A stretch of DNA of 64,000 nucleotides. It comes from a virus (Duplodnaviria > Caudoviricetes). Position 1 is the first letter of the stretch, and each line of letters starts with the position of its first letter. The stretch spans positions 7,319 through 71,318 of IMG/VR virus record IMGVR_UViG_2728368913_000005; one strand, given 5' to 3'. The translations under genes were made by a program, and so were the position numbers. The notes beneath the pieces were generated by a model. That model saw nothing but the letters and a program-made list of their open reading frames with translations, did not search any database and had not been told where the DNA came from. Below are positions 38,816 to 58,688 of the stretch, in pieces.

Positions 38816-39622
38816 TCAAGACCTAAATGGTATCTGAGATTTGACTATGTCGACGCCCGACATTCCGTTTGACTGGAGAAGTATCCTCAGTGACTCCGCA
38901 GCTAGAACAGGATTTTTTACCGGTCCGATATGTACTGCCTTTATCGCACTTGGCGCGAACTCATGTTCGAGATACGGTACCAGATGATCATCTTTAGCTC
39001 TGAACCTAATTTTCGGCCCCACACTATGCCTAATAAGCCGCACCTCCTGCTCAGCTTCGAAATGACGATTCTTGAAACATGCTGCTAGCACCATAAGCTC
39101 CTTAATTTGCTCTATTCCACCCTCCGGATTTTCATTTATCAGGATATCGTTTAACTCTGCACAGTACTGCTGGACTGCAATCTTAGCAATAGAGAGTTTT
39201 TTATCTTCAGCGTACATGCAAGGAGATAGCACTGGGAGGGCAACGGTCTTTAAATCCGGCTGAACGTCTAGTAACCGCTCATCGAATTCAATTGCGAAAA
39301 AACCATATGCTTGCCACTGACTCAGTAAGTCACCCGATTTACTAAAAGAGCACGTATAGATCCCCTGAGACTCTGCTGCGGTACGGGCATACATGAAGCC
39401 CCCCTGCAGAAAGCGCGCTCCGCGCACCAACTCCGGACTATCTTTCAGAGTTAATATATGCTCATCCAAAGCACTCGAAATTGTATCGATTCCTTCCATT
39501 ATTTCACGAGAGTCATTTAGAAAAAATGCGTTGGTGAGCCATAGTTTGCTACTAGAGATGATAGCGGCAACCGCATTGATATCTGAATAGTGAAAAATAG
39601 AGTTTTCTCCATGCTCTCCCAT
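38816..39622 (-). CDS. DUF2971-family protein (antisense moron)
   Basis: FHYS...LWLT...LNDSRE; CSFS..GDLLSQW..YG; FKNRHFEAEQEVR. Confidence 0.85.
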   Translation of the reverse strand: MGEHGENSIFHYSDINAVAAIISSSKLWLTNAFFLNDSREIMEGIDTISSALDEHILTLKDSPELVRGARFLQGGFMYARTAAESQGIYTCSFSKSGDLLSQWQAYGFFAIEFDERLLDVQPDLKTVALPVLSPCMYAEDKKLSIAKIAVQQYCAELNDILINENPEGGIEQIKELMVLAACFKNRHFEAEQEVRLIRHSVGPKIRFRAKDDHLVPYLEHEFAPSAIKAVHIGPVKNPVLAAESLRILLQSNGMSGVDIVKSQIPFRS

Positions 39623-39794
39623 TTCTACTTCAAGCCTTCGCTCTATGTGTGATGGTCTTTAATAACCGATCTCTTGCCGATTTGCCACCACCAGACACAC
39701 AGCGCGCCGCATACGGAGTGCCGCGCCAACCATCGTCGCCCCCTCTTCAACTCAAAATCCCACCCAGTGGAATCAAGCCCCCGGAGAAACAACC

Positions 39795-40142
39795 ATGTCG
39801 AAGCCGACAGACACCAGTGAATTCCTCAACGAACTGAATGGCGGGGCTTTCGCCAGCCAGATCGGCCACGCCCTTTCCGAAGTTGCCGCCGGTGTCGTCG
39901 ACCACGGCAAAGCCGGGAAGGTGGTCATCACCCTGGACTTCTCGCAGATCGGCGAGTCCAGCCAGGTGAAGATCAAACACAAGCTCGATTACAAGGTGCC
40001 GACCAAGCGAGGCACCCGCAGCGAGAACACCAGCCTCGACACGCCAATGCACGTTGGCTCCGGCGGCAACATCACGCTGTTCGCCGAAAAGCACGACCAG
40101 CTGTTCACGCGTGACGATGCGCCAATCCCACGCCGCAACTGA
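39795..40142 (+). CDS. YfdP-like phage protein
   Basis: FLNELNGGAF...VAAGVVDHGKAGKV; precedes DUF2303 gene. Confidence 0.8.
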   Translation: MSKPTDTSEFLNELNGGAFASQIGHALSEVAAGVVDHGKAGKVVITLDFSQIGESSQVKIKHKLDYKVPTKRGTRSENTSLDTPMHVGSGGNITLFAEKHDQLFTRDDAPIPRRN

Positions 40143-40171
40143 TCACCACCCCACCAAGCGAGACTTGAAAT

Positions 40172-40987
40172 ATGTCCCTCACGAAAGAAGCTATTCAACT
40201 GATCATCGATGACGCGCTGATCGCCCAAGGCAAAGAGCTGGGCACCGTTACGCCCACCATCGTGCTGCCGGAAGGCGCGAAGGTCGTGAACCTTGAGCAA
40301 TTCGGCGCAGGTCGCAGTCGCTTCCGTGGCACGTTCTCCACCAACTCCCTGGCGGACTTCGCCAAGTACGTGTCCGAGCGCGCAGTCGCCGACGCAAAAG
40401 GCTTCATCAATCAGGACGAAATGACCTGTTCGGTGCTGTTCAACCTGGGCAACGAGGAAGTGCCAGGCCACGCTGATGACCGCGCCGTGCTGAAGCTCAA
40501 GCCCACCGCTGCCTATCAGGCCGTGCAGGCCATCAGTGGCCGGGGCATGTCGCAGAAGGATATGAGCGACTGGATTGAAGACTGGCACAGCACGCTGTCG
40601 GCGGTCGGTGATGAGCTGCAGAACATCCCGTTGGCCAAAGCCATCGCAGCCGTGCGCACGATCACGGTCAAAGCGTCGTCGGAAAGCGATCACACCGTCA
40701 GCGAGACACGCGCCAGCCGCAGCGCAATGGATGCCATCGAGGCGACCAGCAAGGAAACTTTGCCCACGTCGCTGATCTTCTCGGCAGTGCCCTTTGAAGG
40801 CCTGCAGCAGCGCGAAATCATCCTGCGAATCTCGGTCATCACCAGCGGCGCACAGCCGGTGTTGAAGTTGCGTTGGGTCGGCGAGGACGTGCAGCGCGAA
40901 GAGATCGCGCAAGAGTTCAAGTCGGTGCTTGAAGCGAAGGTAGGTGATGCTGCGCAGCTGGCTCTTGGATCTTTTGATCCGAAGTAA
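40172..40987 (+). CDS. YfdQ / DUF2303 family protein
   Basis: RSRFRGTF, PGHADD, DWIEDW motifs. Confidence 0.85.
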   Translation: MSLTKEAIQLIIDDALIAQGKELGTVTPTIVLPEGAKVVNLEQFGAGRSRFRGTFSTNSLADFAKYVSERAVADAKGFINQDEMTCSVLFNLGNEEVPGHADDRAVLKLKPTAAYQAVQAISGRGMSQKDMSDWIEDWHSTLSAVGDELQNIPLAKAIAAVRTITVKASSESDHTVSETRASRSAMDAIEATSKETLPTSLIFSAVPFEGLQQREIILRISVITSGAQPVLKLRWVGEDVQREEIAQEFKSVLEAKVGDAAQLALGSFDPK

Positions 40988-41043
40988 GTAGTCCCCAAAA
41001 TACCCCGGACGGTTACCCTGCCCGGGGGAGTTGAGATCAGCCG

Positions 41044-41643
41044 TCAATCACCCAACATAGTCATGATTGAGGCTCCAATCGTGGTGAGTGACTCAACTTT
41101 CGGCAGAGAATCGATCAGGCGCCTGACAATGTTCTTCTTTGGGGCTGGCGAATCAATCTGGGTTTTGATTTCGTCAACCACGTCGAGAGCTTCAAGCTTT
41201 TCAGCGTCAGGCAGCTCTATCTTCTCGACCTCGGACCTTAGGCCTGCAACCAGATTAGATATTTCTGTATTTGAGTAAACTGTGTTAACGGAATTATCTA
41301 CGCTTTGGTTGTTGACCCGAGCATTGTTACCGTAAAAGTTGTAAACGGTGCTGTGGCTTACTTTCTCAGCTTCTGCCTCTCCCATACGTCTCACAACCAT
41401 CTGATAGTGAGCCTCGAAATCCATAACTGCTTCATAAAAGCCTGGTTCTACAACTTCAAACGTTTCGCTTCCGCCATTAGACATATGGCGGATAATCAGG
41501 TCTTTTGGCTCGATGAAAATTGAAGAGTCCCAAAGAAAGACCTTTCCCTTTTGGACGCTGGCTTTCAATCCATCGAATCGCTGGCCATTTGTTTTTAAAA
41601 CCGAAATATTGTCCTTTGCGAAATCGTTAAACATCCCACGCAT
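41044..41643 (-). CDS. Hypothetical antisense moron with Asn-rich linker and helical C-terminus
   Basis: 199 aa AT-rich ORF with RBS. Confidence 0.78.
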   Translation of the reverse strand: MRGMFNDFAKDNISVLKTNGQRFDGLKASVQKGKVFLWDSSIFIEPKDLIIRHMSNGGSETFEVVEPGFYEAVMDFEAHYQMVVRRMGEAEAEKVSHSTVYNFYGNNARVNNQSVDNSVNTVYSNTEISNLVAGLRSEVEKIELPDAEKLEALDVVDEIKTQIDSPAPKKNIVRRLIDSLPKVESLTTIGASIMTMLGD

Positions 41644-41741
41644 AACGTTCCCATCCTAGTCAGTGGTGTTACCCGGCGTCATGCCGAGCATAGCCATCAA
41701 TACCCCACTTCAACGACTCACGCCACCCTTTGGAATCGCTT

Positions 41742-42830
41742 ATGAGCCAGCTCCACCAGATACTGGTAGGCGACTGCATCGACATGATGCGCACGCTGCC
41801 AGATGAAAGCGTGCATACGTGCGTGACCAGCCCGCCCTACTACGGTCTGCGTGACTATGGCGTAGAAGGCCAGATCGGCCTTGAGGAAACCCCTGCCGAG
41901 TTCATCGCTCGGTTGGTCGACGTGTTCCGCGAAGTGCGCAGAGTACTTCGCGCTGACGGCACGATCTGGGTCAACATGGGCGACAGCTACGCCGGCAGCT
42001 GGGGCGCGCACGGCCGGGACGACATGGGTGTCGGCGTTTCGACGATCAGCCAACGCCAAGTGATGGCGAGCCAGCGCAAATCGAAAGCGACAACCCACGC
42101 CGATTACAAGCCGAAAGACTTGATGGGCATGCCCTGGCGTCTCGCCTTCGCGCTGCAGGACGACGGCTGGTATCTGCGGCAGGACATCATCTGGCATAAG
42201 CCAAATCCTATGCCGGAGTCGACGCGTGACCGCTGCACAAAAGCTCACGAATACCTGTTCCTGCTCAGCAAGTCACGGCAGTACTTCTACGACCAAGACG
42301 CCATAAAGGAACCGGTGTCAGCCAGCTCTATCGCCCGTCTAGCTCAGAACGTTGACGATCAAGCGGGAAGTGATCGCGTCCCAGGCAAAGCCAACGGGCC
42401 AATGAAGGCAGTGCGCAGTAGGCGGGACAGCTTCAAGCGCGAAGGCTCGAAGCGGGAGCAGGTGATTCCAGGCCAAACAGTCGGAACTCATCGACCTGAT
42501 CGAACTGACAGCGACTACCCACTGGATATGCGGAACAAGCGCTCCGTCTGGTCAGTGCCCACTGTGGGCTATAAAGGCGCCCACTTCGCTACCTTTCCGC
42601 CCGACCTGATCAGGCCCTGCATCCTGGCCGGTGCGCCGCGCGGCGGCGTGGTGCTGGACCCATTCGGCGGTGCCGGTACCACGTCGCTAGTTTCGATGCA
42701 GGAAGGTCGACGGTCGATCATCTGCGAGCTGAACCCAACGTACGCGGCTCTGGCCCGAGCGCGGATCGACTCAGCTTGGCTGGATGGAGCTGCGCAGATG
42801 GATGTGTTTCGTGACAATCCAGCCGCTTGA
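41742..42830 (+). CDS. N4-C/N6-A DNA methyltransferase (beta class), orphan
   Basis: TSPPY catalytic motif; HFATFP; VLDPFGGAGTT SAM motif. Confidence 0.93.
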   Translation: MSQLHQILVGDCIDMMRTLPDESVHTCVTSPPYYGLRDYGVEGQIGLEETPAEFIARLVDVFREVRRVLRADGTIWVNMGDSYAGSWGAHGRDDMGVGVSTISQRQVMASQRKSKATTHADYKPKDLMGMPWRLAFALQDDGWYLRQDIIWHKPNPMPESTRDRCTKAHEYLFLLSKSRQYFYDQDAIKEPVSASSIARLAQNVDDQAGSDRVPGKANGPMKAVRSRRDSFKREGSKREQVIPGQTVGTHRPDRTDSDYPLDMRNKRSVWSVPTVGYKGAHFATFPPDLIRPCILAGAPRGGVVLDPFGGAGTTSLVSMQEGRRSIICELNPTYAALARARIDSAWLDGAAQMDVFRDNPAA

Positions 42831-42837
42831 GAGTCCT

Positions 42838-43053
42838 CTACCCGGTAATAATTGGGCCTGGTGACCAGCTTACAGCGTTGAGACTCGTCGTGAGTTCCAT
42901 CTTGATCCAAGGCTGACCACACGTCCCGCATTTCATCGAAGCCGTGGTGAAGCTAACTGTTATACGCCCGCTTTCGTGGTCAACCATTCTCCCTGTATTC
43001 GAAGGTTGATCCGGATACTCAATCATCTGGATACAGTTTTCGCATAACCCCAC
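42838..43053 (-). CDS. Small zinc-binding antisense moron
   Basis: CENC...CGTCG; AGGAG RBS, GTG start. Confidence 0.6.
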   Translation of the reverse strand: MGLCENCIQMIEYPDQPSNTGRMVDHESGRITVSFTTASMKCGTCGQPWIKMELTTSLNAVSWSPGPIITG

Positions 43054-43199
43054 AGCACTCTCCTAACCGACTGCATGTTGGGCAGTACATCAATGCACCG
43101 CCTGAACGATCTAGGCGTGATCGCCATAAAATGATCGTACCTCCCTAAAAACACCGATCGGAGCAGTGAACGCGATTGTTTTATGCAAAAGCCTATTGT

Positions 43200-44177
43200 C
43201 TAGCTTGCCTTTCCATCGGACTTCTTTTCTGCCCAAGAATTGTAGTGTGCTCGCAGCATCTGGGGTTCGACATCCTCGCCATCAGCAAAAGCTAAGTCAT
43301 CATAAAATGTGGAACGAACTTCTGGATAACGAACGAACTGCATTCCACTCAAATGTTTAAGCATAGAGTACTTTTCAACATAATACTTCAAGCCCTCCCC
43401 TTTTACAGTCAGGCAGTTTAGAAAAAGAATACTGAGCTCGGCGTTATGCAACTGGGCACGAAGCATATTTGCGTAAATGCGCTGATCATAATACTGCTTA
43501 AGCAACTGCCTTATCAAAAAGAACGAGTATTTCCTATTCATGCGTAACGGATCGACACCAAAAGACTCGATATGTTTGAGAAGCTGATAAAGATTTCTAA
43601 AATAGTGCGAGAAATTATGAGAGAAAGACTCATCGAAGTCATTGATTACTACTTTTAAATGCTTTATATAAGCTTCCTCACCGACTCCTCCAAAAAAGTA
43701 ATGTTTATGCAGTGCATTGAATGCAGCCTGCCCAATCAAGAGCTGAGGCTGTCCGGTCAAGGGGCCACGTAAATTAGAGACTTTTAGCTCGGCAGTTAAA
43801 CGGATATGTATATCAAGCAACCTGAAAAATACAGCTTCGAAGTTTTGTCGCTCAATATTCTGCCGCTGTTGAATCTGAATATCGTAATTATCTTTAGCAT
43901 CCTGCCGAGCAAGCCTTAGTTCAGCCCTCTGCATTCTTATACTGTACAACACAGCCATCAGTGCAACGAAACTTAAAAAGGGGTTGAGCATACCGCCCAC
44001 AAAATCGCCAAGCTGCCCCCAGTACTGAGCTGAGTTAGAGTTAGCTATTGCGATTAATGGTATATCTGCTCCGACCCAGAAGTGCCAAATGACTGCCACC
44101 AGCACTAACGTGGTGGCACCGAATCCGGCGAGACAAATCATACCCAAGATAAATATATCTAACGGGTTGCTGCGCAT
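43200..44177 (-). CDS. Putative abortive infection protein (putAbiC-like) with N-terminal TMs
   Basis: GQLGDFVGGMLNP TM motif; SHYFRNLYQLLK...YANMLRAQL..AEL...VEKYSMLKHL. Confidence 0.82.
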   Translation of the reverse strand: MRSNPLDIFILGMICLAGFGATTLVLVAVIWHFWVGADIPLIAIANSNSAQYWGQLGDFVGGMLNPFLSFVALMAVLYSIRMQRAELRLARQDAKDNYDIQIQQRQNIERQNFEAVFFRLLDIHIRLTAELKVSNLRGPLTGQPQLLIGQAAFNALHKHYFFGGVGEEAYIKHLKVVINDFDESFSHNFSHYFRNLYQLLKHIESFGVDPLRMNRKYSFFLIRQLLKQYYDQRIYANMLRAQLHNAELSILFLNCLTVKGEGLKYYVEKYSMLKHLSGMQFVRYPEVRSTFYDDLAFADGEDVEPQMLRAHYNSWAEKKSDGKAS

Positions 44178-44253
44178 ATTATTTGCAGGCACCTTAGGCG
44201 CTCCTTGCTTAAGTTGATTTCTGAAACTGCCCAAACAACTGAGACCGCACATT

Positions 44254-45201
44254 ATGCTTGAATATGGCAGCGTTTGCAGCGGCATTGAGGCCGCGACCGT
44301 GGCCTGGCAACCGCTGGGCATGGAGCCTGTGTGGTTCGCCGAGATTGACCCCTTCCCCAGCGCCGTGCTGGCCCACCACTACCCTCGCACGCCGAACCTT
44401 GGCGACATGACCAAGCTCGGGGCCCTGGTCCTGGCTGGCAAGATCAAAGCGCCGGACGTGCTTGTAGGCGGAACGCCGTGCCAGGCATTCAGTGTCGCCG
44501 GCATGAGACAGGGCATGCTCGACCCGCGCGGTGCCCTAACCATCAAATATGTGGAGCTTGCAGATGCAGTTGACCATGTTCGAACCAGTCGAAACCAACC
44601 CGAAAGCATCATCGTCTGGGAGAACGTCCCCGGTGTCCTTTCCGACAAAGGCAACGCCTTCGGATGCTTTCTTGGCGCACTTGCTGGGGAAGACTGCGAG
44701 CTGCAGCCTCCAGGGAAACGGTGGCAGGACGCTGGTTGTGTGTATGGACCCAAAAGAACAATCGCGTGGCGGATCCTGGACGCCCAATATTTCGGCCTGG
44801 CCCAACGACGCCGCCGTGTGTTCCTTGTCGCAAGTGCTCGAGCAGACTTCGATCCCACGGAGGTACTTTTTGAGCGAGAAGGCGTGCGCCGGGATTGCGC
44901 GCCGAGACGGTTACCGGAGTCGTCACTTCATCCTACTCTCACGGCAAAAGGGGGTGGCGCTCTCGATGACCGAGAGGCATATGTATTGGAGACCGATGGC
45001 GTTCGTAGAACCAGCGTAATCGAGTGGGAGCGCTGTCAGGGCTTTGTGGATAATTACACGCAGATCCCTTGGCGCGGCAAACATGCTAGCGATTGTCCTG
45101 ATGGCCTCCGCTATAAAACGATTGGCAATAGCAAGGCGGTACCCGTCGTTAGATGGATCGGCGTGCGACTGATCCATCACACCCAAGTAAATCCCTATTA
45201 G
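44254..45201 (+). CDS. C5-cytosine DNA methyltransferase, orphan
   Basis: SVCSGIEA, GGTPCQAFS, ENVPG, QRRRRVF, GNS motifs. Confidence 0.93.
   Translation: MLEYGSVCSGIEAATVAWQPLGMEPVWFAEIDPFPSAVLAHHYPRTPNLGDMTKLGALVLAGKIKAPDVLVGGTPCQAFSVAGMRQGMLDPRGALTIKYVELADAVDHVRTSRNQPESIIVWENVPGVLSDKGNAFGCFLGALAGEDCELQPPGKRWQDAGCVYGPKRTIAWRILDAQYFGLAQRRRRVFLVASARADFDPTEVLFEREGVRRDCAPRRLPESSLHPTLTAKGGGALDDREAYVLETDGVRRTSVIEWERCQGFVDNYTQIPWRGKHASDCPDGLRYKTIGNSKAVPVVRWIGVRLIHHTQVNPY
44564..45019 (+). CDS. Nested alternative-frame ORF (methyltransferase beta-polypeptide-like)
   Basis: GGAG 7 nt upstream of ATG; WPNDAAVCSLSQVLE...RYFLSEKACAGI. Confidence 0.6.
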   Translation: MQLTMFEPVETNPKASSSGRTSPVSFPTKATPSDAFLAHLLGKTASCSLQGNGGRTLVVCMDPKEQSRGGSWTPNISAWPNDAAVCSLSQVLEQTSIPRRYFLSEKACAGIARRDGYRSRHFILLSRQKGVALSMTERHMYWRPMAFVEPA

Positions 45202-45242
45202 CCTCGTTAACGAAGCAATCGGCGAATCCATATTTATGGCAA

Positions 45243-46346
45243 CTAATCGTCGTACATAGGATACATTTTTGGAATTAATATGCTTTCAGCTAATGGAAAC
45301 TCCAGAAAGCCCCCATCAATTAGCTCGAACTCCCAATCGTCTAGCACTACACTTTCGAGATCGCCCTCAAAATATGAAATAGATAATTGTGCCGACAGTA
45401 CATTCCGATAGGTCAGGTTGTGTATTTCTTTTTGCCACGTAGGGTCCACGTCTTTTGGCGAAAGAAAGCCTAGACACATACCTAACTTCCAATACTCGGC
45501 CGACACTTTAAATTCGAAATCCACACCATGAACAGAACAATCATTTTTGGCCGAAAAGACCCGAATATTTGTAGCTTTAATAGCTGAAACCGAAAACCTC
45601 ACATCTTGTATATCATATTCAGCCTCCAAATCAATCGTAAAGTCGTAATTCACCAGCCATTCACCAACCATTTGTTGTGCGATGTCCAAAACTTGATTCA
45701 ACGCCTTATCAGCAAAATCTAATGGATGATCTCTGGCTGTGTGCGCCAATGCATTTACAACCTCGCCTAGATTGCTGGACCAGAAAAGATGGCGACTACC
45801 GGAACAATATGAGCACATATCGGAATCGGAGCTAATAACGTGTATACGCAAATTATTTTCGGCGGCATATGCTTTCAAAGCTTCCAAAACAAATGCATCT
45901 CTGAACTCGTTTTGCTTTTTATCAGAAAACGGAGGCAGCATATCAAAGAACAATGTAAATACGTCTTCTGCAGATGCAAGGTCAACAGAAATAATCTCTA
46001 TATTTTTAGTCGAGAGAAAGCGCTCAAAACCGGCAAAAAGCTCCGACTCAATACTGCCTGCATCAACCCGATCGAACATTAGTGAACTAGCATATGCAGG
46101 TATATTCCGCAAAACCTTGCCTTTTTCGCGAAAAGACTGCGCCGCGCTGGCGGCTTCTTTAGACTGCGCCCTTAGGTGCTTTTTGACTTCAGCCACTGTG
46201 ACATTAACCAATACCAAGCTAGCCTCATCTCTTTCTAAAAGATCAGTAAGGCTCGCCAAGTCCTTGGAAAAAAACTGGTAATTATTCGCATAAAAAATAC
46301 ATGAATCAATGAATACGACTCTCGAGCGAAGCGCAAAACCATCCAT
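45243..46346 (-). CDS. PIN-domain protein (DUF4935-like), antisense moron
   Basis: VFIDSCIF; PPFSDKKQNEFRDAFVLE; ISSDSD. Confidence 0.85.
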   Translation of the reverse strand: MDGFALRSRVVFIDSCIFYANNYQFFSKDLASLTDLLERDEASLVLVNVTVAEVKKHLRAQSKEAASAAQSFREKGKVLRNIPAYASSLMFDRVDAGSIESELFAGFERFLSTKNIEIISVDLASAEDVFTLFFDMLPPFSDKKQNEFRDAFVLEALKAYAAENNLRIHVISSDSDMCSYCSGSRHLFWSSNLGEVVNALAHTARDHPLDFADKALNQVLDIAQQMVGEWLVNYDFTIDLEAEYDIQDVRFSVSAIKATNIRVFSAKNDCSVHGVDFEFKVSAEYWKLGMCLGFLSPKDVDPTWQKEIHNLTYRNVLSAQLSISYFEGDLESVVLDDWEFELIDGGFLEFPLAESILIPKMYPMYDD

Positions 46347-46593
46347 TCCAACCTCCATTACACTCACCTGTATCTCGCTCAAAAACCAAATCGCAATAAC
46401 TTGAGACACGATCATACGAGCAGCCGGCCAGCCCACGCTACCAGAATCTGGCACCAGAACTCGGACGCAGTTTGAAGCCGGCGAACAATCCTATGCTTTT
46501 TGAGATATCAAATTGCATGAATGCTAAATAAGCGACGACCACAGTGCCGTCACTTAAATCAAGCTACTCACGCCATCTTCGCGAGGATAAACC

Positions 46594-47076
46594 ATGTTTG
46601 CAGCCCTGCGAGCCCCCATCAATCCAGACACCCTCCCCACACCCTGGCCGGCACGCGATGGTCTTTGCGATGCCTGCAACGCCTACCGCGCCCGAGGAAA
46701 CCACAAGGCCTGCCTGGGGGGGGCATGCCCGCTATGCGCAGAGCGCGAAGGAATCGAAATCATGAGCAACGAACCGAACGACGTGCGTGAGTCGCGTGAG
46801 CTGCTGCGTTGCCCGTTCTGCGGCGGCGTACCGTTCATCACAAAGCATCACCGTGAAGAGATGTACGCCTTCATACACCGTTGCGAAGTTTTGGGACCGA
46901 TCAGCCGGGACTTCCGCGAAGATCCAGCGGCGCATGTCGAGATGTGGAACACTCGCGTCCAGCCAACCGCCAACACGAGAATAGTGCTGCCCGATCGCAA
47001 GCTGATTTGCAGCTATGAGGACGCAGGATTTAACGAGTGCCTAGATGAAGTCGCCAAGCTGAACACCCCGCAGTAA
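46594..47076 (+). CDS. Lar-like zinc-finger protein (possible internal start 46762)
   Basis: LLRCPFCGG...WNTR motif. Confidence 0.65.
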   Translation: MFAALRAPINPDTLPTPWPARDGLCDACNAYRARGNHKACLGGACPLCAEREGIEIMSNEPNDVRESRELLRCPFCGGVPFITKHHREEMYAFIHRCEVLGPISRDFREDPAAHVEMWNTRVQPTANTRIVLPDRKLICSYEDAGFNECLDEVAKLNTPQ

Positions 47077-48286: not shown

Positions 48287-48499
48287 TCAATGAATAGCGG
48301 GTATAGATTCTGTAGCGTCGTCGGAAGCCGCGATGAAGTCATGCCACGCTAAAAACGCTTGATAATGGCGGTTAGTTGCCTCTGCCCAAAAAGCGCCTTC
48401 AATTTCCTTCGCAGCAACCATCATCATCATTTTAGCGATTGATGCGTCCAGCTCCACCAAGAGCTCATGAGCCCTGAAGCGAAATTCATCATTTGGCAC
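48287..48499 (-). CDS. Small antisense helical protein
   Basis: AGGGA RBS; paralogue of 63782..64000. Confidence 0.68.
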   Translation of the reverse strand: MPNDEFRFRAHELLVELDASIAKMMMMVAAKEIEGAFWAEATNRHYQAFLAWHDFIAASDDATESIPAIH

Positions 48500-49732: not shown

Positions 49733-50767
49733 ATGGGAAGAAAGCCGATTAATCCCGACAGCGTCACACGCCTCAGAAAGCGTAAACAGCGCAGCGGGGT
49801 CGTCTATTACTACTATGACATCGGAGGTTCACCGCGAAAGGAAATTCCACTGGGCTCTGACTATGGTATGGCGATCGTCGAGTACGCCAAGCTGGAGAAG
49901 AGCCGAACATCATCGGCCCTCGTCCAGCAGGTGCTTACCTTCGCGTATGTCGCGGAAAAGTACATGGCTGAGGTCGTGCCCACCAAAAGCCCGGCAACAC
50001 AGAAAGACAATGCCAGGGAGCTGAAGCAACTTCTGAAGTTCTTCGACGATCCACCAGCACCGCTGGAAGCGATCGAACCTCAACACGTCGTGCAGTACCT
50101 GCGCCAGCGAGGCAAGACTGCCCCTGTCCGAGCCAACAGGGAGAAGGCGCTACTGAGTGCTATCTGGAATTTTGCAAGGAGCGCTGGCTACACGTCGCTG
50201 GCCAACCCGTGCGCGGGCGTCAAGGGTCACAAGGAAGTCGGGCGAGACCATTACATCGAGGACGAGATGTTTGCACTGGTTTACGGCCATGCGGAGCAAC
50301 CTCTACGCGATGCTCTGGATCTTTTCTACCTGACAGGGCAGAGGATTGCGGACACGCTGAAAATGGATGAGCGCGATATACGCGACGGCAGGCTATGGGT
50401 TCAGCAAGGCAAGACGAATGCAAAAAGGAGGATTGAAATTACAGGTGAGCTGAAGGTGGTCATTGACCGCATTATGACCAGAAAGGAAGGACACAGGATC
50501 CGCACCTCCAGGCTGATCGTTATGGATAACGGCCAGCCCATGACGAGCAGTATGTTGCGGGGAAGATTTGACGCGGCACGCGAGGCGGCCGGTGTGGAGA
50601 AGGGAGAATTTCAGATGCGAGACCTGCGAGCGAAAGCCGGCACGGACAAGGCTGAGTCGAGCGGCGATATCCTTCAAGCCCGCGATCAGCTCGGGCACAC
50701 CACCGTGGTGATGACCGAGAACTACATCCGCAAAAGAATCGGGAAAAAGGTCACTCCAACCAAGTGA
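49733..50767 (+). CDS. int: Tyrosine integrase
   Basis: TGQRIAD, QGKT, RDLRAKA, LGHT...YIR catalytic motifs. Confidence 0.95.
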   Translation: MGRKPINPDSVTRLRKRKQRSGVVYYYYDIGGSPRKEIPLGSDYGMAIVEYAKLEKSRTSSALVQQVLTFAYVAEKYMAEVVPTKSPATQKDNARELKQLLKFFDDPPAPLEAIEPQHVVQYLRQRGKTAPVRANREKALLSAIWNFARSAGYTSLANPCAGVKGHKEVGRDHYIEDEMFALVYGHAEQPLRDALDLFYLTGQRIADTLKMDERDIRDGRLWVQQGKTNAKRRIEITGELKVVIDRIMTRKEGHRIRTSRLIVMDNGQPMTSSMLRGRFDAAREAAGVEKGEFQMRDLRAKAGTDKAESSGDILQARDQLGHTTVVMTENYIRKRIGKKVTPTK

Positions 50768-50884: not shown

Positions 50885-50941
50885 GGACTTAAAATCCCTC
50901 GTCCTTTGGACGTGCCGGTTCGACCCCGGCTCGGGGCACCA
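50885..50941 (+). tRNA. 3' fragment of tRNA-Leu(TAA), prophage att site
   Basis: Anticodon loop CTTAAAA, long variable arm, GGTTCGA T-loop, CCA end; no D-arm or 5' acceptor strand. Confidence 0.88.
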
Positions 50942-50987: not shown

Positions 50988-51164
50988 GTTTTGGTTCGGA
51001 AAACCATTCGTTTATTAGACTGTCTGCCTACCACGACGGCGGTGTCGCCGCACAAAAATCCATCTGGTGAATTGTGTGCTGGATCACCAGACGCAGCTTG
51101 TCGACGCAGTGATCAAGACCTGCGCCTCTGTCGTCGATCGCCTTTATTACGTATGACTAAAGCC

Positions 51165-51883: not shown

Positions 51884-51964
51884 AGCGCCTGCAAATGCGC
51901 GTCCGCCACGGCAGGCGCCAGCATCACATTCACTTGCCGCCCAGCGGCTTACAGGAGCGGTTTA

Positions 51965-52318
51965 ATGGCGATGGATCAAGAAGAGCGATCAGCCAAGACG
52001 GCGCTGAAGCGGAAACTGGTCGCTGAGAAAGAGCTGCGCCACCGGGTTCGGCCTGGCATTGAGCAGGCCCTGAATCGGGTTCGCCAGCGCGGCAAGATGC
52101 CCATCGTCAGCGAGGTCTTGCAGATCGCGATCATGAAGATGGATTTGATGGATGATGAAGAGCTTGATGCCTTCCTGACTTATCCGCGCCACGAAATCGT
52201 GGTTAGCGAATCCGTGGCGCGGGCAATCTACGACGCGGGCATCAGGAATATCCGGAGCGCCGACCAAGACGAATCAGACGAGGTCATCTCACCGCTCGCC
52301 ATCAATTGCTGCGACTGA
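51965..52318 (+). CDS. Hypothetical phage protein
   Basis: AGGAG RBS, intact ORF. Confidence 0.7.
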   Translation: MAMDQEERSAKTALKRKLVAEKELRHRVRPGIEQALNRVRQRGKMPIVSEVLQIAIMKMDLMDDEELDAFLTYPRHEIVVSESVARAIYDAGIRNIRSADQDESDEVISPLAINCCD

Positions 52319-52508
52319 GCTGCACGTTCTGGCTGATACAATTGATGTTAGTCACCGTGCCCATGAACGCATTCATCTGCACAGAGCACTTTTCAATATT
52401 CAGGCCGTTTCTGCCATCGCTTGAGATGTTAGTCACGTAAGGCCCTGCGGTTGAACAGCCAGCCAACACGGCTACGGCGGCAAATAAAGCAAAAATCGAC
52501 TTCTTCAA
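52302..52508 (-). CDS. Small lipoprotein moron
   Basis: AGGAG RBS, TTG start, lipobox VLAGC. Confidence 0.78.
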   Translation of the reverse strand: MKKSIFALFAAVAVLAGCSTAGPYVTNISSDGRNGLNIEKCSVQMNAFMGTVTNINCISQNVQLSRSN

Positions 52509-52616
52509 AGTACAGCTCCTAGTGCCCGGCTCCATGCCGGTCACCCGTAATACCCCATTCCTAACCAACTTGCCACCACCGGACACGGAGGGCGGCGCCT
52601 ACCCGAGGTAGACGAA

Positions 52617-53619
52617 ATGCCTGTACGTCATAGCGTCATCCACAAAATCGACAAGAAGCCTGACTGCAGCCCGGCCGTTCTGTTCCTGGGCGCTGCCGAG
52701 CAGTTCGAGAGTCAGGCCCGCGATGACCTGATGAGGCAGCTCAACGAAAGCTACAACGCAACCGCCAGCAAGGGATGGGGGTTCTTCTAACCACAGTCAG
52801 GCGCTTTCCCGTTTAGCGGCTGGCTCGGCGAGTACCTATCCGGCGATATCGACTTCCTGGAATTCAGCGCCAGCGCCGTCGAGCACCTGACCAAGCTGAT
52901 GGAAGAGTCGAACCTTACCACCGGCGGGCACGCCCTCTTCTACCACTATCAGCAGGGCATGACCGACTATCTGGTTATCGCTCTGGTGCAGGAAACCGAA
53001 GCGGTGACCATGACCGAAGAGCTGGCACTGACGGCGGTGAACTGCCTCGACCTCGGACCACATCCACCTGGCCGCGCGCATCAACGTGAGCGAGTGGCAA
53101 AACAATCCTCAGTCGAAGCATTACATCTCGTACCTCAAGGGCAAGCAGGGTAGCCGGATCAATGACTACTTCCGCGACTTCATTGGCTGCCAAGAAGGCA
53201 TCGACGGCCCGGGCGAAACGCGAACGTTGCTGAAGGCGTTCAGCGACTTTGTCGAGAGCGAGGACATGGCCAACGAGGCCGCTCGCGAGAAGACCAGCAC
53301 CTTGGTCAGCTACTCCATGGCCCAAGCCAAGCTGGGTGAGCCCATTACCCTTGACGAATTGTCGGGCCTGATCGACGAAAACCGGCCGAAGAATTTCTAC
53401 GATTTCATCAAGGCGAAGGACTACGGACTTTCTGAATCCCTGCCGCCGGATAAGAAGACCCTTAACAAATTCCGGCGATTCACCGGCCGGGCCGAGGGCA
53501 TGTCGATCAGCTTCGAAGCTCATCTGCTGGGCGACAAGATCGAGTTCGAGGCCGGTGGAACGCTGACGCTGCGCAACCTTCCTACCCAGCTCACTAACCA
53601 GCTTAAGCAATCAGCCTAA
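52617..53619 (+). pseudogene. yejK: Phage nucleoid-associated protein YejK/NdpA pseudogene
   Basis: MPVRHSVIHKIDKKPD start; TAA at about 52788; frameshift near 53060; YFRDFIGC motif. Confidence 0.87.
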
Positions 53620-53739
53620 CCCAACCTTCACCTATTGAGCTGAATGCCCCTCCAGGCGGGCGCGGTATCTGAGGACCGGAGCCACAAAATTGCGATATTC
53701 ACGAATGTGGCTCGGCAGCATGAAATTTCCTATCAGTTA

Positions 53740-54033
53740 TCAGCCTTCAGGTGGGAGCATGATGGCCTTGATTGAGGCTAGCCAGTTGGTCTTGATGTAC
53801 TCCTTTAAGTCCGACCACTCATCCTCGTCGAGTTCCTCAATTTTAAAATCCATAGAGCCATCGTTATCACGAGCCCGCCCTAAAAGATCCCATTTGGCAT
53901 CGTATGACTTGCCATTGGGTAGCGGGACATGCCCAACTATCGCATCAGGGCTACCCAGATCGACACCTGTAATGACGCCTTCGGTACCGTTTTTGGTGCG
54001 GATATCAATCGGATGAATTTTGATTACAGGCAT
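53740..54033 (-). CDS. Hypothetical antisense moron
   Basis: GAGGGA RBS; MPVIKIHPIDIR. Confidence 0.68.
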   Translation of the reverse strand: MPVIKIHPIDIRTKNGTEGVITGVDLGSPDAIVGHVPLPNGKSYDAKWDLLGRARDNDGSMDFKIEELDEDEWSDLKEYIKTNWLASIKAIMLPPEG

Positions 54034-54135
54034 GCGGAATTCCCTCTCGTCTATGTTCCCGTAGTAGATACCCCATCCCCACCCAATTTGCCACTCACCG
54101 AGATATCGGGGATGGCGCCTGCAATGGAGATTGCC

Positions 54136-54713
54136 ATGATCGAAGCCACCGAGAGGCAGCTCGGCGCTCTGGCACACACTCGGGCTGCGCCCGGAGTACA
54201 GAGACAGTCGCACGGTATATCGAAATCTTTTACTGGCGGGCCTTGGCCACGACGACACGACAGACTTGGAAACTTTGGTGACGCTGGGGCTGATGGGAAG
54301 TCGCGAGCCCCCGGCGTTTTGCGATCAGAGCGAAATTCTCTACTTCGCGACCGAAGAGGGCGAACGATTCGCCATTGCCAAAATGCCGCCTGCGCCACCT
54401 GCACCTAAGCGCACGAATTTTGACGCCTACCTGGATGAGAGCGAGTGCTACGACAACTTTGCCCACTTCTTGGGCATCAGGATGCCTCGATCTCATGAGC
54501 GCGGCGAACGCTGCAAGCGCGAATATCGCATGGTTCGCTACCGGCGAAACGTAGGCCGCTTTCATAGCCCCGAATACTTGCTGCTTTGCGAGCCAGTTGA
54601 TGTTGCCGGTGAGTAGTGCTTGGACAGAAAGGATGCGAAGGCCAGTTACAAGGCCGCGCTTAAGGCGGCCCCTCGCCGACGCCGACGAGAGTGCGACGAA
54701 GGTTTTTGAATAA
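54136..54713 (+). pseudogene. Phage hypothetical gene, frameshifted with premature stop
   Basis: GGAG RBS start out of frame with 54266..54616; TAG at 54614. Confidence 0.6.
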
Positions 54714-54770
54714 CCCACCCTCGCCTATTGCACTGAACAGATAGTCATCTCTGCGGAGAGGGCACCGGGT

Positions 54771-55046
54771 TTATTCGGTCTTCTTTAGGGATATTCCAAG
54801 CACCCCCGTTGCGATCGCCCCTAGTAGCGCACTTACAGTCGACTCAGCAATTATCTTTTCCATGCCCATGATAAATATTGCAGCCACCAAGATAAAAAGC
54901 GCGAACGTCTTTAAAAGAACATCTGGCGGCGTTATGTATTTCACTTCTCCAGTAGTGACCCTATTCATGAAAATCAAGAAGACCCACATGATTGCCAGAA
55001 TCGCGAAGGGAAACACTAAGAATGCTATGTACAGATTATTTTCCAT
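54771..55046 (-). CDS. Small multi-TM antisense moron
   Basis: GAGG RBS; three hydrophobic segments; AT-rich. Confidence 0.7.
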   Translation of the reverse strand: MENNLYIAFLVFPFAILAIMWVFLIFMNRVTTGEVKYITPPDVLLKTFALFILVAAIFIMGMEKIIAESTVSALLGAIATGVLGISLKKTE

Positions 55047-55266
55047 ATGACTACCTCACTTTATAGACATGACAGCTTTCGGCATTGGATCCATTTTCTT
55101 TAGTAGATAGCTTATAGACGCGCGGGAGCTGCTCAGGGGCGTAGGTCTGTCTCTGGTTCTCCTGCTAGAGCCTAGAGTTGATCAGACAGCTAGATTTTTG
55201 CGTAACGAGCCGTACGCATGACCCCCTCCTCACTTCCGCGACTCACGCCACCCTTTGGAATCGCTT

Positions 55267-56378
55267 ATGAGCCAGCTCCATCAGATACTGGTAGGCGACT
55301 GCATCGACATGATGCGCACGCTGCCAGATGAAAGCGTGCATACGTGCGTGACCAGCCCGCCCTACTACGGTCTGCGTGACTACGGCGTAGAAGGCCAGAT
55401 CGGCCTTGAGGAAACCCCGGCCGAGTTCGTCGCCCGCTTGGTCGACGTGTTCCGGCCAAGTGCGCAGGGTGCTGCGCGCTGACGGCACGATCTGGGTGAA
55501 CATGGGCGATAGCTACGCATCAGTCGCCGGCGGCTACGCTGAAGGGGGTTCTGCCGGCAAACACGACGTGGTGTCGGTAGCAACTTGCAGGGCCGTGCGT
55601 AGAGGTCATCGGCGCACTCCGCCGGACGAATTTAAGGCAAAGGACCTGATGGGCATGCCCTGGCGCTTGGCATTCGCCCTGCAGGACGACGGCTGGTATC
55701 TGCGGCAGGACATCATCTGGAACAAACCGAACCCGATGCCTGAGAGCGTGCGGGACCTGTGCACCAAATCGCATGAGCACATCTTCCTGCTGAGCAAATC
55801 GAAGAAGTACTACTTCGACCAGACGGCCATTCTGGAACATTGCTCCCCGAACACCCATGCCCGTCTGTCTCAGGACGTTCAAGCGCAGATCGGCAGCGAA
55901 CGCGCCAACGGCGGAGCCAAGAGCAACGGCAACATGAAGGCGACTGCGCGGAAGTCAAACGGTGTGGGTTGGGGTCACGGCACAGACGCCGACGTCCGCA
56001 AGCGCGGCAGGGTCAAAGACAACGAGTCAATGAACTCAGCCTTGGCGATCATGCCAACCGAGCGGAACAAGCGCAGCGTTTGGACTGTGGCCACACACAG
56101 CTTCAAGGGCGCCCACTTCGCCACCTTCCCGCCCGACCTGATCAGGCCCTGCATCCTAGCCGGTGCGCCGCGCTGTGGTGTGGTGTGGTGTGGTGCTGGA
56201 CCCATTCGGCGGTGCGGGCACCACGCCGCTGGTTTCGATGCAGGAAGGTCGCCGGTCGATCATCTGCGAACTGAACCCAGAGTATGCGGCTCTGGCCCGC
56301 GCCCGGATCGACGCGGCCTGGATGGACGGCGCGGCGCAGATGGACGTATTTCGCGATTCAGCACCACACCGCGGTTAG
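55267..56378 (+). pseudogene. N4/N6 DNA methyltransferase pseudogene
   Basis: Near-identical 5' end to the 41742 copy; frameshifts at about 55455 and at the TGTGG repeat 56174-56195. Confidence 0.9.
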
Positions 56379-56626
56379 TAACCAGGCTTTACCTCTTTCT
56401 GAAAACTGGCGGCCGGTTCAAGCGGGAAAGGCCTATAGGAGGCAAGATTTTCGTTAAGGAATTTGGCGATGTCTCGGGCTTTGTTCATGTCTGTGCCGGG
56501 CTTCAGATCAAATGCTGGCGGATCTTTTTGAAGCCCTGGTATATCGTCGTGAAATTCCATATTTAAATATGGCACTCCATCAACAGATTCTTTGATGGTG
56601 AAAACTATCCGAGTCTTGTGGCTCAT
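56375..56626 (-). CDS. Small antisense moron
   Basis: GGAG RBS; MSHKTRIVFTIKES. Confidence 0.7.
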   Translation of the reverse strand: MSHKTRIVFTIKESVDGVPYLNMEFHDDIPGLQKDPPAFDLKPGTDMNKARDIAKFLNENLASYRPFPLEPAASFQKEVKPGY

Positions 56627-56715
56627 CGCAATCTCCAGTCTCCGACTCCATGTCGGGCACCACACCAATACCTCACTTCAACGACCTACGCCAGCCCAAA
56701 AGCGTTGACGCATCA

Positions 56716-56827
56716 CTGGATTGGCGAGGACGTGCAGCGCGAAGAGATCGCGCAAGAGTTCAAGTCAGTGCTTGAAGCGAACGTCAGCGATGCCGCTAAA
56801 CTGGCGCTAGGTAGCTTCTCGGCCTGA
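56716..56827 (+). pseudogene. C-terminal stub of YfdQ/DUF2303
   Basis: WIGEDVQREEIAQEFKSVLEA matches the end of 40172..40987. Confidence 0.85.
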
Positions 56828-57073
56828 TTATTGGTGCCCCGAGCCACTAAATCCCAAAGTTAGAAATCGTGGCGCTGGAGTTTTACCGGAAGAGCATGTC
56901 CAGTGAAAGAGCAGGCAGAAGTAATAAAGAGCAGGTTGATTAGGAATCAAAAGACGTGGTAAGACGCAAGCGCCGACGTTCAAGAAGACTCCTGACAAAC
57001 CCACCAAGGTAAATAGCGTCAGATTTGCCGTAACTTTGAGCATGCTCTTTTCGGGCTATAGATATCGCTGTGT

Positions 57074-57811
57074 TCAACTCTCAAACTCAAAATGATTGCG
57101 GAGGAACTGGACGGTATACGCTAGACAGCTTTTCGCTATGCTCAGAGTGAACTCCAGATTATGCGTCGTAGGCCCGGTCAACAGTCGCACGCTGTTTTCG
57201 GTGACCTCTAATGAAGAATCCAAAGATCTAAAGGTTGCATGGCTCGCTGTACTTGAAAACCCACGGTAGACCGTATCATACAACTCCATTAGGCCCGCGA
57301 CACGAGCCGCTTCTATTGCACTGAGACCGCCTTCTTTGCCGCCGCCCTTCTGGATAACATACCCTAATTGCTCGACTTGCTCGTCGGTTAATTCTAGACA
57401 AGTGCGCGAATTAATAATGGCCTCAGCCTGCTTTCGATCTGATATATCACCAGCTCGAGCTATAAGTTGGAAAACTGATGCGTCTGTTGCAAGTGCGCCA
57501 CCGTAGAAAATAACCTCTACAGCGGTCCGCAGTAACGTCTGGGCTTCAACAACAAGGCCAGCCTCACAGAGCAATATCGCGGTTTGGCAGCTCCGGACTG
57601 CTCGCTGAAAGAACACTATAGAAGCAATCATGTGGATTTCGTTTCGCTTGACTCCAGCAGCAATTAAGAGCCCCTGTGCTAAATCAGAAAGATCTTCGAC
57701 GTCTGAAAATGCTTGGCCGAACTGCTGCCGATATCGCGCTTTAACATATCCGAGTGCCGGCGAAAGAAACCCCCTTGAGTTCAGGCTATCATTGATTTGC
57801 TTGTCGTCCAT
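57074..57811 (-). CDS. DUF5677-like (HEPN-like) antisense moron
   Basis: AILLCEAGLVVEAQTLLRTAVE...YDTVYRGFSSTASHA. Confidence 0.75.
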   Translation of the reverse strand: MDDKQINDSLNSRGFLSPALGYVKARYRQQFGQAFSDVEDLSDLAQGLLIAAGVKRNEIHMIASIVFFQRAVRSCQTAILLCEAGLVVEAQTLLRTAVEVIFYGGALATDASVFQLIARAGDISDRKQAEAIINSRTCLELTDEQVEQLGYVIQKGGGKEGGLSAIEAARVAGLMELYDTVYRGFSSTASHATFRSLDSSLEVTENSVRLLTGPTTHNLEFTLSIAKSCLAYTVQFLRNHFEFES

Positions 57812-57944
57812 AAATTCCCTCGTATCTGAATTTTGCGTTGAGAATACATAACGCATAAAATATCAAAACGCCACCCCGGCGATTATAAACTATGTCCCTG
57901 GAAGGAATAGTAGGGATTCCAGTAACAATATTATTAAAACAGCT

Positions 57945-58688
57945 TCACCCCAGCGAGATACCCACTTGACACCCCTCAGCGAAGAAGCCTTGTAATGTGT
58001 TCCAATTTTTTCCGTCCTGCGAAAATGAGAGAATCTCTTCGTCCCCCTTCAAGAACCATCCCTCGAACTCCATATTAATTCTTTCTATGGCTATGGCGTG
58101 AGGCGGAGAAACTCTGATTTGCAAAGCGACATCACCAATCCCCCTAAGCAGTCTAATCCGAGGACCTACTATCTCAACATCCCAGTTTTCATCGCCCGCA
58201 TAAAACTCATTATCAACAATTTTCAAAGTAGTTGCACCGGTCACATCGGAAAACATTCCAGAGAGGCGAATAGGCGCGCCTTCTTCTTCAGGCGGCAGAA
58301 GAGAAATCAAGTTGACCCCCTTAACCTGAATAATAACTGCACAATCGATAAAGTCTTGGCCCGCGAATCTCACAGAAATTGGCTCAGGCCCAAAATCAAA
58401 AAGCTCCGAAGCAAACCCCTGCTGCTTGCATTTAGGGTTTTGATTTGCACGAGCCACGGTTTCGGCTGATAACGTGCCACGTGCGCGTTTTTGATTGCAT
58501 TGTGAACAAAGCAAAGTCATCCCGTTCGGATTGTGCTCAGTCGCGTCTTTGAAATCTGGATCGAAGTGTTCGTATTCATAATAGGCAAGGCCACATCTCA
58601 CACATCCGAATCCGCATCGCCGGCGTATTTCTCTACGAATCGCTGCGGGTATGGTTCGCCCCAATCCGAACTTGTTTTTCTCGCCCAT
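57945..58688 (-). CDS. HNH-domain protein with beta-rich C-terminus, antisense moron
   Basis: RRCGFGCVRCG...YEHFDP...LLCSQCN. Confidence 0.82.
   Translation of the reverse strand: MGEKNKFGLGRTIPAAIRREIRRRCGFGCVRCGLAYYEYEHFDPDFKDATEHNPNGMTLLCSQCNQKRARGTLSAETVARANQNPKCKQQGFASELFDFGPEPISVRFAGQDFIDCAVIIQVKGVNLISLLPPEEEGAPIRLSGMFSDVTGATTLKIVDNEFYAGDENWDVEIVGPRIRLLRGIGDVALQIRVSPPHAIAIERINMEFEGWFLKGDEEILSFSQDGKNWNTLQGFFAEGCQVGISLG

Follow-up and report, generated by a model that had tools for sequence, protein, structure and literature searches.

The DNA analyzed here is a 64,000-nucleotide stretch (hereafter the window) of the IMG/VR virus record IMGVR_UViG_2728368913_000005 (Duplodnaviria; Caudoviricetes), covering positions 7,319 to 71,318 of that record, and the subject is a short repeated element that lies at the head of genes running against one of its operons. 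The record is that of a lambdoid Pseudomonas prophage, whose nearest isolated relatives are temperate P. syringae phages. Late and early-right genes, including an O-like replication gene and a gene for a CII-like activator (30271–30693), lie on the minus strand; a CI-type repressor gene (31035–31739) and the early-left operon lie on the plus strand. This operon follows a near-consensus pL promoter (TTGACT-N17-TATATT) with palindromic operators at about 34480–34530 and encodes, in this order, RecT, a RecE/YqaJ-type exonuclease, phrog_204, DUF2303, N6 and C5 methylases, Lar, other proteins, Xis and Int. It terminates at a 57-nucleotide (nt) 3' fragment of a tRNA (50885–50941), just past the phage integrase gene at its end (49733–50767). 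Starting at about 51.0 kb, another such early operon is present in a decayed state: its RecT and RecE genes are remnants, the NdpA/NA37 gene is broken into three pieces, the N6 methylase gene is frameshifted, and the C5 methylase has 699 amino acids.

In this region plus-strand phage genes alternate with AT-richer open reading frames (ORFs) on the minus strand (G+C fraction of 0.56–0.61 versus 0.43–0.49), as a first-pass annotation of the window had noticed. That annotation put the antisense genes at about 14. Nine are supported by a family match, by a relative, or by a Shine-Dalgarno (SD) sequence together with the element (38816–39622, 41044–41643, 43200–44321, 45243–46454, 52302–52508, 53740–54033, 56375–56626, 57074–57856 and 57945–58688), and four are indicated by an open frame and composition only (42838–43053, 48287–48499, 54771–55046 and 56828–57043). 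Upstream of six of the genes a minus-strand motif of two boxes at a fixed distance had been reported, and all six sites read as described. Boxes and spacing are real features of the window: the pattern TGGCRW-N17-TAT has seven matches in the 64 kb, all on the minus strand, against a mean of 1.20 and a maximum of 4 in 100 dinucleotide-preserving shuffles, none of which (0/100) reached seven. The seventh match (23131–23156) sits inside a late gene (22857–23195) and is unmatched by the model of the element described below, and is therefore taken as chance.

Repeat search and alignment revealed that the motif sites are pieces of longer repeats. On the minus strand, the element spans about 75 nt and consists of a TGGC box, a 17-nt spacer, a TGGGG run joined to TAT, 6–8 further nucleotides, a 5-bp GC hairpin, an SD sequence and a start codon, the latter about 70 nt from the first box. 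The alignment of copies is almost free of gaps. The run noticed before TAT proved to be a nearly invariant TGGGG. The spacer had been thought to vary freely, and this view had to be abandoned, as two conserved subtypes, A and B, are found.

The best copy in the window (52506–52580, minus strand, 71.5 bits, E = 9e-17) is of subtype A and comprises TGGCAA (52570–52575), TATTAC (52547–52552), a hairpin (52526–52540) folding at −14.7 kcal/mol, an SD sequence (52515–52519) and a TTG start codon at 52508. The gene behind it, and any gene so placed, is hereafter called cargo; here it is a minus-strand ORF of 68 amino acids (52302–52508) with SD and start at offset 72, a lipoprotein-type signal peptide (Pfam LPAM_1, 21.0 bits against a cut-off of 20) and no DNA homologue in 179 loci. 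Two minus-strand copies are of subtype B. The first (56622–56698, 61.3 bits, E = 5e-14; TGGCGT 56688–56693, TATTGG 56665–56670, a hairpin with a compensatory A-U pair, ATG at 56626) precedes a minus-strand ORF of 83 amino acids (56375–56626) that has a 78% identical relative behind an element copy in locus L029 of the samples described below. The second (41653–41730, 47.9 bits, E = 2e-10; TGGCGT 41720–41725, TATTGA 41697–41702, a hairpin at about 41672–41688 with one U-G pair, ATG at 41643) precedes a minus-strand gene of 199 amino acids (41044–41643, G+C 0.45; phrog_16834, E = 3e-49), which resembles the candidate defence family PDC-M14B (PADLOC, E = 1.7e-10). Two degenerate subtype A copies on the same strand lack the hairpin: one (54033–54098, 40.3 bits, E = 2e-8; TGGCAA 54088–54093, TATCTA 54065–54070, ATG at 54033) has no stable fold and fronts an ORF of 97 amino acids with no known family (53740–54033, minus strand), and the other (39617–39692, 38.5 bits, E = 7e-8; TGGCAA 39682–39687, TATTAA 39659–39664, ATG at 39622) fronts a minus-strand gene of 268 amino acids with a G+C fraction of 0.45 (38816–39622). 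This last gene had been assigned to DUF2971; it has no Pfam match at E ≤ 0.01 and belongs to phrog_1762, whose relative in locus L033 does match DUF2971, so that the assignment stands by relatives and not by direct match.

Five of the six reported sites are thus members of one repeat family (38–72 bits). The sixth (57806–57878, minus strand) is a look-alike (13.3 bits, E = 0.42): its TGGCGT falls in a duplicated plus-strand gene leader (repeat D11) and makes up the 3' arm of a terminator-like hairpin (57881–57869), and its TATGTA lies 31 nt before 57811, the probable start of the DUF5677 gene. For that minus-strand cargo gene (57074–57856) Pfam confirmed the family, and its relative in locus L043 sits behind a proper element copy. 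A putAbiC-type gene (43200–44321, minus strand) is without element here, putAbiC genes in loci L070 and L083 being placed behind it, and a PIN_12 gene (45243–46454, minus strand; Pfam) has no model match either. In all, only five of the about 13 antisense ORFs of the window carry the element. A terminator scan returned isolated terminator-like sites in the window only at 43168–43152 and 57881–57869. Rfam gave no match at the gathering threshold in the whole window, and NCBIfam none for 14 window proteins.

The distribution of the element was examined in two samples. The first consisted of loci fetched around relatives of the N6 methylase gene (56 loci for profile searches and 60 related Pseudomonas sources for a covariance model). 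When an nhmmer profile was made of the five best window copies, 38 further copies came up in the 56 loci, all 43 matches having the same orientation, and the covariance model gave 67 matches in the 60 sources (47 with E < 1e-4), of which 66 are antisense to the methylase-bearing operon. The second sample was drawn from IMG/VR with a pattern of the TAT-side run and hairpin that left out TGGC; at least 120 contigs matched, and in the 80 listed loci that were used the model found 110 more copies. In the multi-copy loci of this sample that were checked (L063, L087, L121 and L127) all copies are on one strand. The four TGGC positions are kept in 108, 104, 107 and 105 of 108 distinct sequences and TAT in 108/108, the conservation of TAT and hairpin in this sample being partly by construction since its loci were chosen for the hairpin. 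Across both samples, 127 of the 129 scorable copies have a spacer of exactly 17 nt, and the hairpin starts 6–8 nt past the hexamer that begins with TAT. In five whole genomes, 14 of 15 matches fell in the contig or region of the locus that had brought the genome in, 150 of about 1450–2040 first-look candidates per genome being scored; the element is tied to prophages. It is also present in the isolated phages PseuP_222 (P. protegens), UFJF_PfDIW6 (P. fluorescens) and phiAH14a, which makes it directly testable. A limited literature search found no published description of this element, which does not prove that there is none.

PseuP_222 (L182) contains four copies, at 782–858, 1128–1188, 2548–2616 and 3239–3313, two of them in tandem. 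Each precedes an annotated antisense gene, and two of the annotated gene starts, located upstream of or inside the element, are probably annotated too early.

The motif had been reported to overlap the translation-start region of the next phage gene, and this holds across the family. For 99 of the 140 copies, a search of the 100 nt upstream of TGGC for SD, start and ORF revealed a divergent gene start; random positions gave one in 20.6% of cases. On the opposite strand, the next plus-strand gene has its SD and start codon 10–45 nt upstream of TGGC. The two subtypes are leader subtypes, each of which recurs before different plus-strand genes (N6 and C5 methylases, NdpA and others). Leaders without an antisense gene keep TGGC, most of the spacer and often TGGGG directly after the stop codon of a plus-strand gene, and have neither TAT nor hairpin. 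Such bare leaders occur in phages PSA-2T, MR15 and Cruim01 and in the window at 55220–55255 and, as subtype B on the plus strand, at 58941–58995, between the stop of a Lar remnant and the gene for the 699-amino-acid C5 methylase; partial model matches of leader-only copies score 13.6 and 12 bits. A weaker candidate copy, a 70% repeat match, lies just before Lar (46570–46599). Among 103 leaders of plus-strand genes, part of them from loci chosen for holding the element, 80 have TAT at N17, and 64 of these have the hairpin; of the remaining 23, 21 are without hairpin and 10 directly follow a co-directional stop codon. It had been proposed that an equal occurrence of the motif at linkers without antisense genes would speak against a link to these genes. 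Such occurrence is true for the half made of TGGC and spacer, and not for TAT and hairpin. The head is therefore composite: TGGC, spacer and TGGGG belong to the leader of the plus-strand gene, and TAT, hairpin and SD go with the cargo.

On the cargo side, an SD sequence, a start codon and an ORF of at least 50 amino acids were found behind 100 of the 110 second-sample copies, as compared to 229 of 2107 random positions (10.9%), and 85 of those 100 starts are at offsets 68–73. In the first sample 42 of 47 copies passed the SD test, three of the other five having no credible ORF. Within multi-member cargo clusters, differences by codon position number 3354, 2680 and 5223, the pattern of coding DNA. 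The SD sequence is mostly AAGGAG. The hairpin is 94.9% and 99.2% paired in two alignments, with a few compensatory changes, and its loop reads AUGGR (AUGGA in 16 and AUGGG in 6 of 32 copies not selected on the loop). Ten wobble pairs fit RNA of the minus strand and four fit RNA of the plus strand, a weak lean from alignments of which the second was fitted to the model. No T-run follows the hairpin on the plus strand.

Cargo genes are diverse. As anticipated in the first-pass annotation, the scan of Pseudomonas prophages revealed that the motif precedes unrelated genes, with 86 clusters among 142 cargo ORFs; the first sample contributed 44 of these ORFs, in 34 clusters. Pfam names five of these 44 and eight of the 98 second-sample cargo ORFs, 90 of which are without any family; the median length, counted in the second sample, is 104 amino acids. 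The families matched are DUF5677, DUF2971, a SEC-C motif, a lipoprotein signal, putAbiC (twice), TIR_2, DUF6173 and 8xMP. PHROGs names 11 of the 44, nearly all of unknown function, and PADLOC matches the window gene at 41044–41643 to PDC-M14B, as stated above, and the L033 gene to PDC-S31. A few cargo proteins resemble abortive-infection or TIR defence proteins.

The content of a given slot varies between relatives while the flanking plus-strand genes are kept, and the possibility that slots are invariant can be set aside. Directly after the N6 methylase gene, nine different cargo ORFs are found in nine loci (L004, L005, L008, L012, L023, L024, L026, L033 and L043); L010 has no cargo gene in this slot and L040 has an element copy with no ORF behind it. 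The gap between N6 and C5 methylase genes is 54 nt in L010, and in the window the putAbiC gene lies between them. The cargo segments of the window have no DNA homologues in the 179 loci, as compared to 3–43 for the plus-strand genes. Alignment ends pile up at elements and at stops of plus-strand genes, with clusters at 52520, 41740, 58940–58960 and 55260. Contigs of relatives join segments of the window in other combinations, and ten of 15 listed joints are at the edges of elements or leaders, including those at 41695–41728, 52526–52598 and 57868; these contigs make up four of 24 public RNA runs (5–7% of sampled words matched), all four consisting of assembled contigs of relatives, which carry no information on start, strand or level, and only the joint positions were used. 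At the other end, cargo stops lie roughly 10–40 nt from the end of the upstream plus-strand gene. Inspection by eye of the sequence after 44 cargo stops detected no shared 3' sequence, attC-like site, hairpin or terminator.

The phage carries its own recombination pair, RecT and a RecE/YqaJ-type exonuclease (36172–38714, plus strand), as had been proposed; both are identified by Pfam and PHROG family matches. An ORF matching phrog_513, labelled 'transposase', lies far off among the late genes.

These properties are best accounted for, in our judgement with somewhat better than even confidence, if the antisense accessory genes placed in the early-left operon are preceded by a cassette head of about 75 nt, of which five of the six sites are copies and which would serve as their promoter and 5' leader. 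A role as promoter and leader is suggested by the fixed geometry of the two boxes, the SD and start codon at a set distance, the coding nature of the cargo and the strict antisense orientation, and promoter function of the head appears likely on these grounds. The predicted promoter-leader would express each inserted gene independently of the repressed pL operon, and transcription would begin at such a place that the hairpin lies at or near the 5' end of the cargo mRNA. A further role as a stretch of homology is suggested by the 75–110 nt repeated at many junctions, as is the case for the promoter-early stem-loop (PeSL) cassettes considered below: with the same sequence present at several junctions within and across phages, cargo could be exchanged by recombination, the upstream plus-strand gene serving as the other arm. 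The RecT/RecE pair of the phage is a plausible catalyst of this exchange.

Several results weigh against this interpretation. A simple sigma-70 scan has none of the six sites among its 11 calls. The spacer of 17 nt (in 127/129 copies) and the A at −11 agree with sigma-70 promoters, and the T at −7 is found in 0/129: the absence of the usual final T, noted as a caveat in the first-pass annotation, extends to the whole family, in which the hexamer ends with C in 68, G in 49, A in 12 and T in none of 129 scorable copies. In contrast to this, the near-consensus pL of the same phage and the conserved −10-like hexamers upstream of cII keep the final T. TGGCAA and TGGCGT match, respectively, three and two of the six positions of the −35 consensus, and TGGC, which persists where cargo is missing, may be kept for the leader of the plus-strand gene and not as a −35 box. 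The head can also be retained with nothing behind it to express, as indicated by copies that lack a cargo ORF (3/47 and 10/110 in the two samples, and others in UFJF_PfDIW6 and phiAH14a). The cargo genes are without evident terminators, the fold-energy z-scores are unremarkable for window copies (−1.0 to −1.7) and uninformative over the five window leaders (−1.7 to +0.2), and the selection of the second sample for the hairpin lessens the weight of its conservation there. The lack of the final T, the negative scan and the retention of T in the pL and cII hexamers together suggest that an activator or another sigma factor may be needed. Boxes of sigma-54, sigma-32, FliA and extracytoplasmic function (ECF) sigma factors, compared by eye on their consensus sequences, do not fit for any of these factors, and this comparison is not counted as a test.

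Element copies without cargo ORF were found at 2920–2994 in L014, 2549–2623 in L020, 8227–8303 in L040, 2479–2553 in L180 and 2478–2552 in L181. These belong to five different phages or prophages, have a changed SD region in common and abut the stop codon of a plus-strand gene, an arrangement that looks stable and not like fresh debris. The copies without cargo in L014, L020, L040, UFJF_PfDIW6 and phiAH14a leave room for a role as antisense RNA or for a role on the plus strand.

An activator-dependent promoter is the starting point of the first alternative, which we regard as unlikely: the promoter would not be a constitutive one of the lysogen that sigma-70 reads unaided, but would need a phage activator, CII-like, or another sigma factor, would fire at establishment or induction, and antisense silencing of the early-left operon would be a main role of it beside the expression of cargo. 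The model is paQ of lambda, which acts as an antisense silencer of Q. Poor boxes combined with strict spacing and a final T in 0/129 copies would suit such a promoter, and a gene for a CII-like activator is present (30271–30693). Copies that persist without cargo would still send antisense RNA into the neighbouring plus-strand gene, and transcripts of cargo genes without terminators would enter the upstream one. Against a link to CII, the conserved columns of the element find no counterpart in the block that 78 relatives share upstream of cII, where a pRE-type promoter is expected.

A second alternative, to which we give only a small chance, would retain promoter function and add control by the host. 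The leader of the plus-strand gene would be half a promoter, completed by the landing of TAT with a cassette, and the hairpin with its ANGGA loop, placed before a GGA-bearing ribosome site, would bind the host proteins RsmA or RsmE and bring dozens of unrelated cargo genes jointly under Gac/Rsm control, which responds to cell density and stress. The GGA of the hairpin loop and the GGA-bearing SD sequence resemble the GGA sites preferred by CsrA/RsmA proteins, which serves as a lead only; a consensus RUACARGGAUGU, presented in hairpin loops, is given for CsrA/RsmA (PMC7937890). If this alternative were true, a search for the head would yield a list of the accessory genes that Pseudomonas prophages express in lysogeny, be they defence, exclusion or unknown genes.

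That the element is instead an intercistronic leader or RNA hairpin of the plus-strand operon, involved in processing, stability or translation, with the antisense genes merely beside it, is rather improbable. The TGGC half and the spacer are indeed kept before plus-strand genes that have no antisense neighbour, copies without cargo put the hairpin right after the stop codon of a plus-strand gene, and the hairpin is equally stable on both strands. However, the hairpin is missing from 21 of the 23 leaders without TAT at N17, an SD and a start codon at fixed distance on the minus strand lie behind 100 of 110 copies, the wobble pairs favour the minus strand by 10 to 4, and the plus strand has no T-run past the hairpin. 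More improbable is a recombination linker or scar without any function in expression, its homology being what repeated exchange has left behind at module boundaries. Contig joints and breaks in homology are indeed concentrated at element edges, and the sequence recurs at many junctions; but 140 diverged copies in front of 86 cargo clusters share an invariant TAT, a paired hairpin, an SD at a fixed distance and, in 127 of 129, a spacer of 17 nt, none of which a scar would have preserved. Lastly, the analogy of an integron-like cargo system proposed in the first-pass annotation, with cassettes moved by site-specific recombination at the motif, would suit the way in which small unrelated genes are arrayed here, each with one and the same short sequence in front and in PseuP_222 even in tandem. 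It is rejected as highly improbable given that the 3' ends of 44 cargo genes, judged by eye, have no conserved boundary, hairpin or attC-like site, that no recombinase gene lies in or beside the cassettes, the only one in the region being that of the phage integrase beside the tRNA-fragment att site, and that each cassette has its own TAT, hairpin and SD in place of a single platform promoter.

Other features of the window concern its two prophages. The tRNA fragment at 50885–50941, read by eye, comprises an anticodon arm, a T arm and an acceptor end with CCA; the stretch is also present in contigs of three other strains, and an ARAGORN search found no full tRNA. It is probably the core of an att site, with the decayed second prophage in tandem beyond it. 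Decay is seen at 52617–53619, 55255–56566, 56704–56811 and 58904–58951, with NdpA/NA37 in three frames and the N6 methylase gene frameshifted. 3' remnants of the DUF2303 and Lar genes adjoin cargo genes in this prophage, and all of these are traces of earlier replacements at those junctions. The C5 methylase of the decayed prophage (58990–61089) is, at 699 amino acids, about twice as long as the 315 amino acids of the copy in the intact prophage; its Pfam match comes in three separate stretches, and long-form relatives are common in related loci. The decayed prophage also contains, on the operon strand, a complete gene for a methyl-accepting chemotaxis protein (61317–63008, plus strand; 4HB_MCP, HAMP and MCP signal domains; G+C 0.49), with relatives in several related loci and in PHROG 8572. 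On the minus strand, between the cI-side genes and pL, a gene of 360 amino acids (32672–33754) has a weak anti-repressor-like N-terminal part and matches PDC-S05, a candidate defence family (E = 6e-108). The pL region (34480–34530) holds two palindromic operators, ATAAGC-N3-GCTTAT, and a third lies next to the cI start at about 31015–31030. Between the cro-like and cII-like genes, a block at 30694–30790 that reads towards cI is conserved in 78 relatives (within loci L183–L262, upstream of the cII relatives) and is followed about 20 nt later by a hexamer keeping A at position 2 and T at position 6; it has the look of a pRE-type promoter, used for establishment by this phage group. The sequence GGTGGCGAA, upstream of cII in the window, is not kept in most relatives.

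The known kinds of system with which the element can be compared are morons, regulatory cassettes at variable regions, and phage hotspots. Morons, a concept due to Juhala and Hendrix, have been described singly, each with its own promoter and terminator. As in morons, genes of deviant composition (G+C of 0.43–0.49 versus 0.56–0.61) are inserted here between genes that are adjacent in relatives, appear to bring expression signals of their own, and are presumably active in the lysogen. Their own promoter would be a conserved promoter-like geometry, yet with non-canonical boxes and a negative sigma-70 scan. By contrast to morons, a single conserved head stands before no fewer than 86 unrelated clusters of genes, most of which lack a terminator. 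The general idea of accessory loci expressed in lysogeny is presented in PMC7067206.

P2-like phages and P4-like satellites have hotspots that house defence genes (Rousset et al. 2022, PMC9122126). These are similar in that fixed genome positions have varying content, and some of the present cargo is defence-like (putAbiC, TIR_2, PDC-M14B and PDC-S31). They differ in that the P2 and P4 hotspots are defined by flanking core genes and apparently not by a shared regulatory sequence, and in that the cargo here is mostly small and without family.

The repeats of mycobacteriophages, namely start-associated sequences and stoperators, offer a further comparison. They too are short, asymmetric, of one orientation and located at many gene junctions of a temperate phage, and the plus-strand leader half of the element, which includes the SD region, resembles a start-associated sequence; unlike in these, the cargo-specific half acts, if at all, on the opposite strand. 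The element is not a stoperator, since it has no likeness to the CI operators of this phage: nothing similar to ATAAGC-N3-GCTTAT, the operator at pL and cI/cro, is found in it. The repeats compared are the Cluster K start-associated sequences and the Cluster A stoperators (PMC3203893, PMC6550527 and PMC9283540).

We could not find a description of a single head in temperate Pseudomonas phages that is directed against the operon, shares half of its sequence with the leader of a neighbour and fronts dozens of unrelated genes. If the head is active, one short sequence would mark the genes expressed against the early operon in a whole group of Pseudomonas prophages and could be used as a search key for new accessory, defence and exclusion genes, most cargo being without known family. 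Its unusual boxes (TGGC, and TAT without final T) would then suggest that these phages use a class of promoter, or an activator, still undescribed for them.

The closest analogue is found among T4-like phages, in the mobile regulatory cassettes known as PeSL (Arbiol et al. 2010, PMC2839356; Comeau et al. 2014, PMC4122927). In these, as here, a composite of short promoter-like boxes and a stem-loop is repeated many times in variable phage regions (47 and 110 copies in the two present samples) and flanks small, mostly unknown, non-essential genes where relatives differ by insertion, deletion or replacement; in the Pseudomonas phages, too, differences between relatives start and end at the cassette. 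PeSL cassettes have strong sigma-70-like early promoters and stem-loops shown to terminate, whereas the present boxes are non-canonical, lack the final T and receive no scan call, and the hairpin has no T-run. No mini-circles are known for the Pseudomonas element, its cassettes face against the surrounding operon, and half of its motif doubles as the leader of the neighbour. PeSL hosts are virulent T4-like phages and the present ones are temperate lambdoid phages of Pseudomonas; if the favoured reading as a cassette head is true, a regulatory cassette doubling as a recombination linker, so far described for the former, would also operate in the latter.

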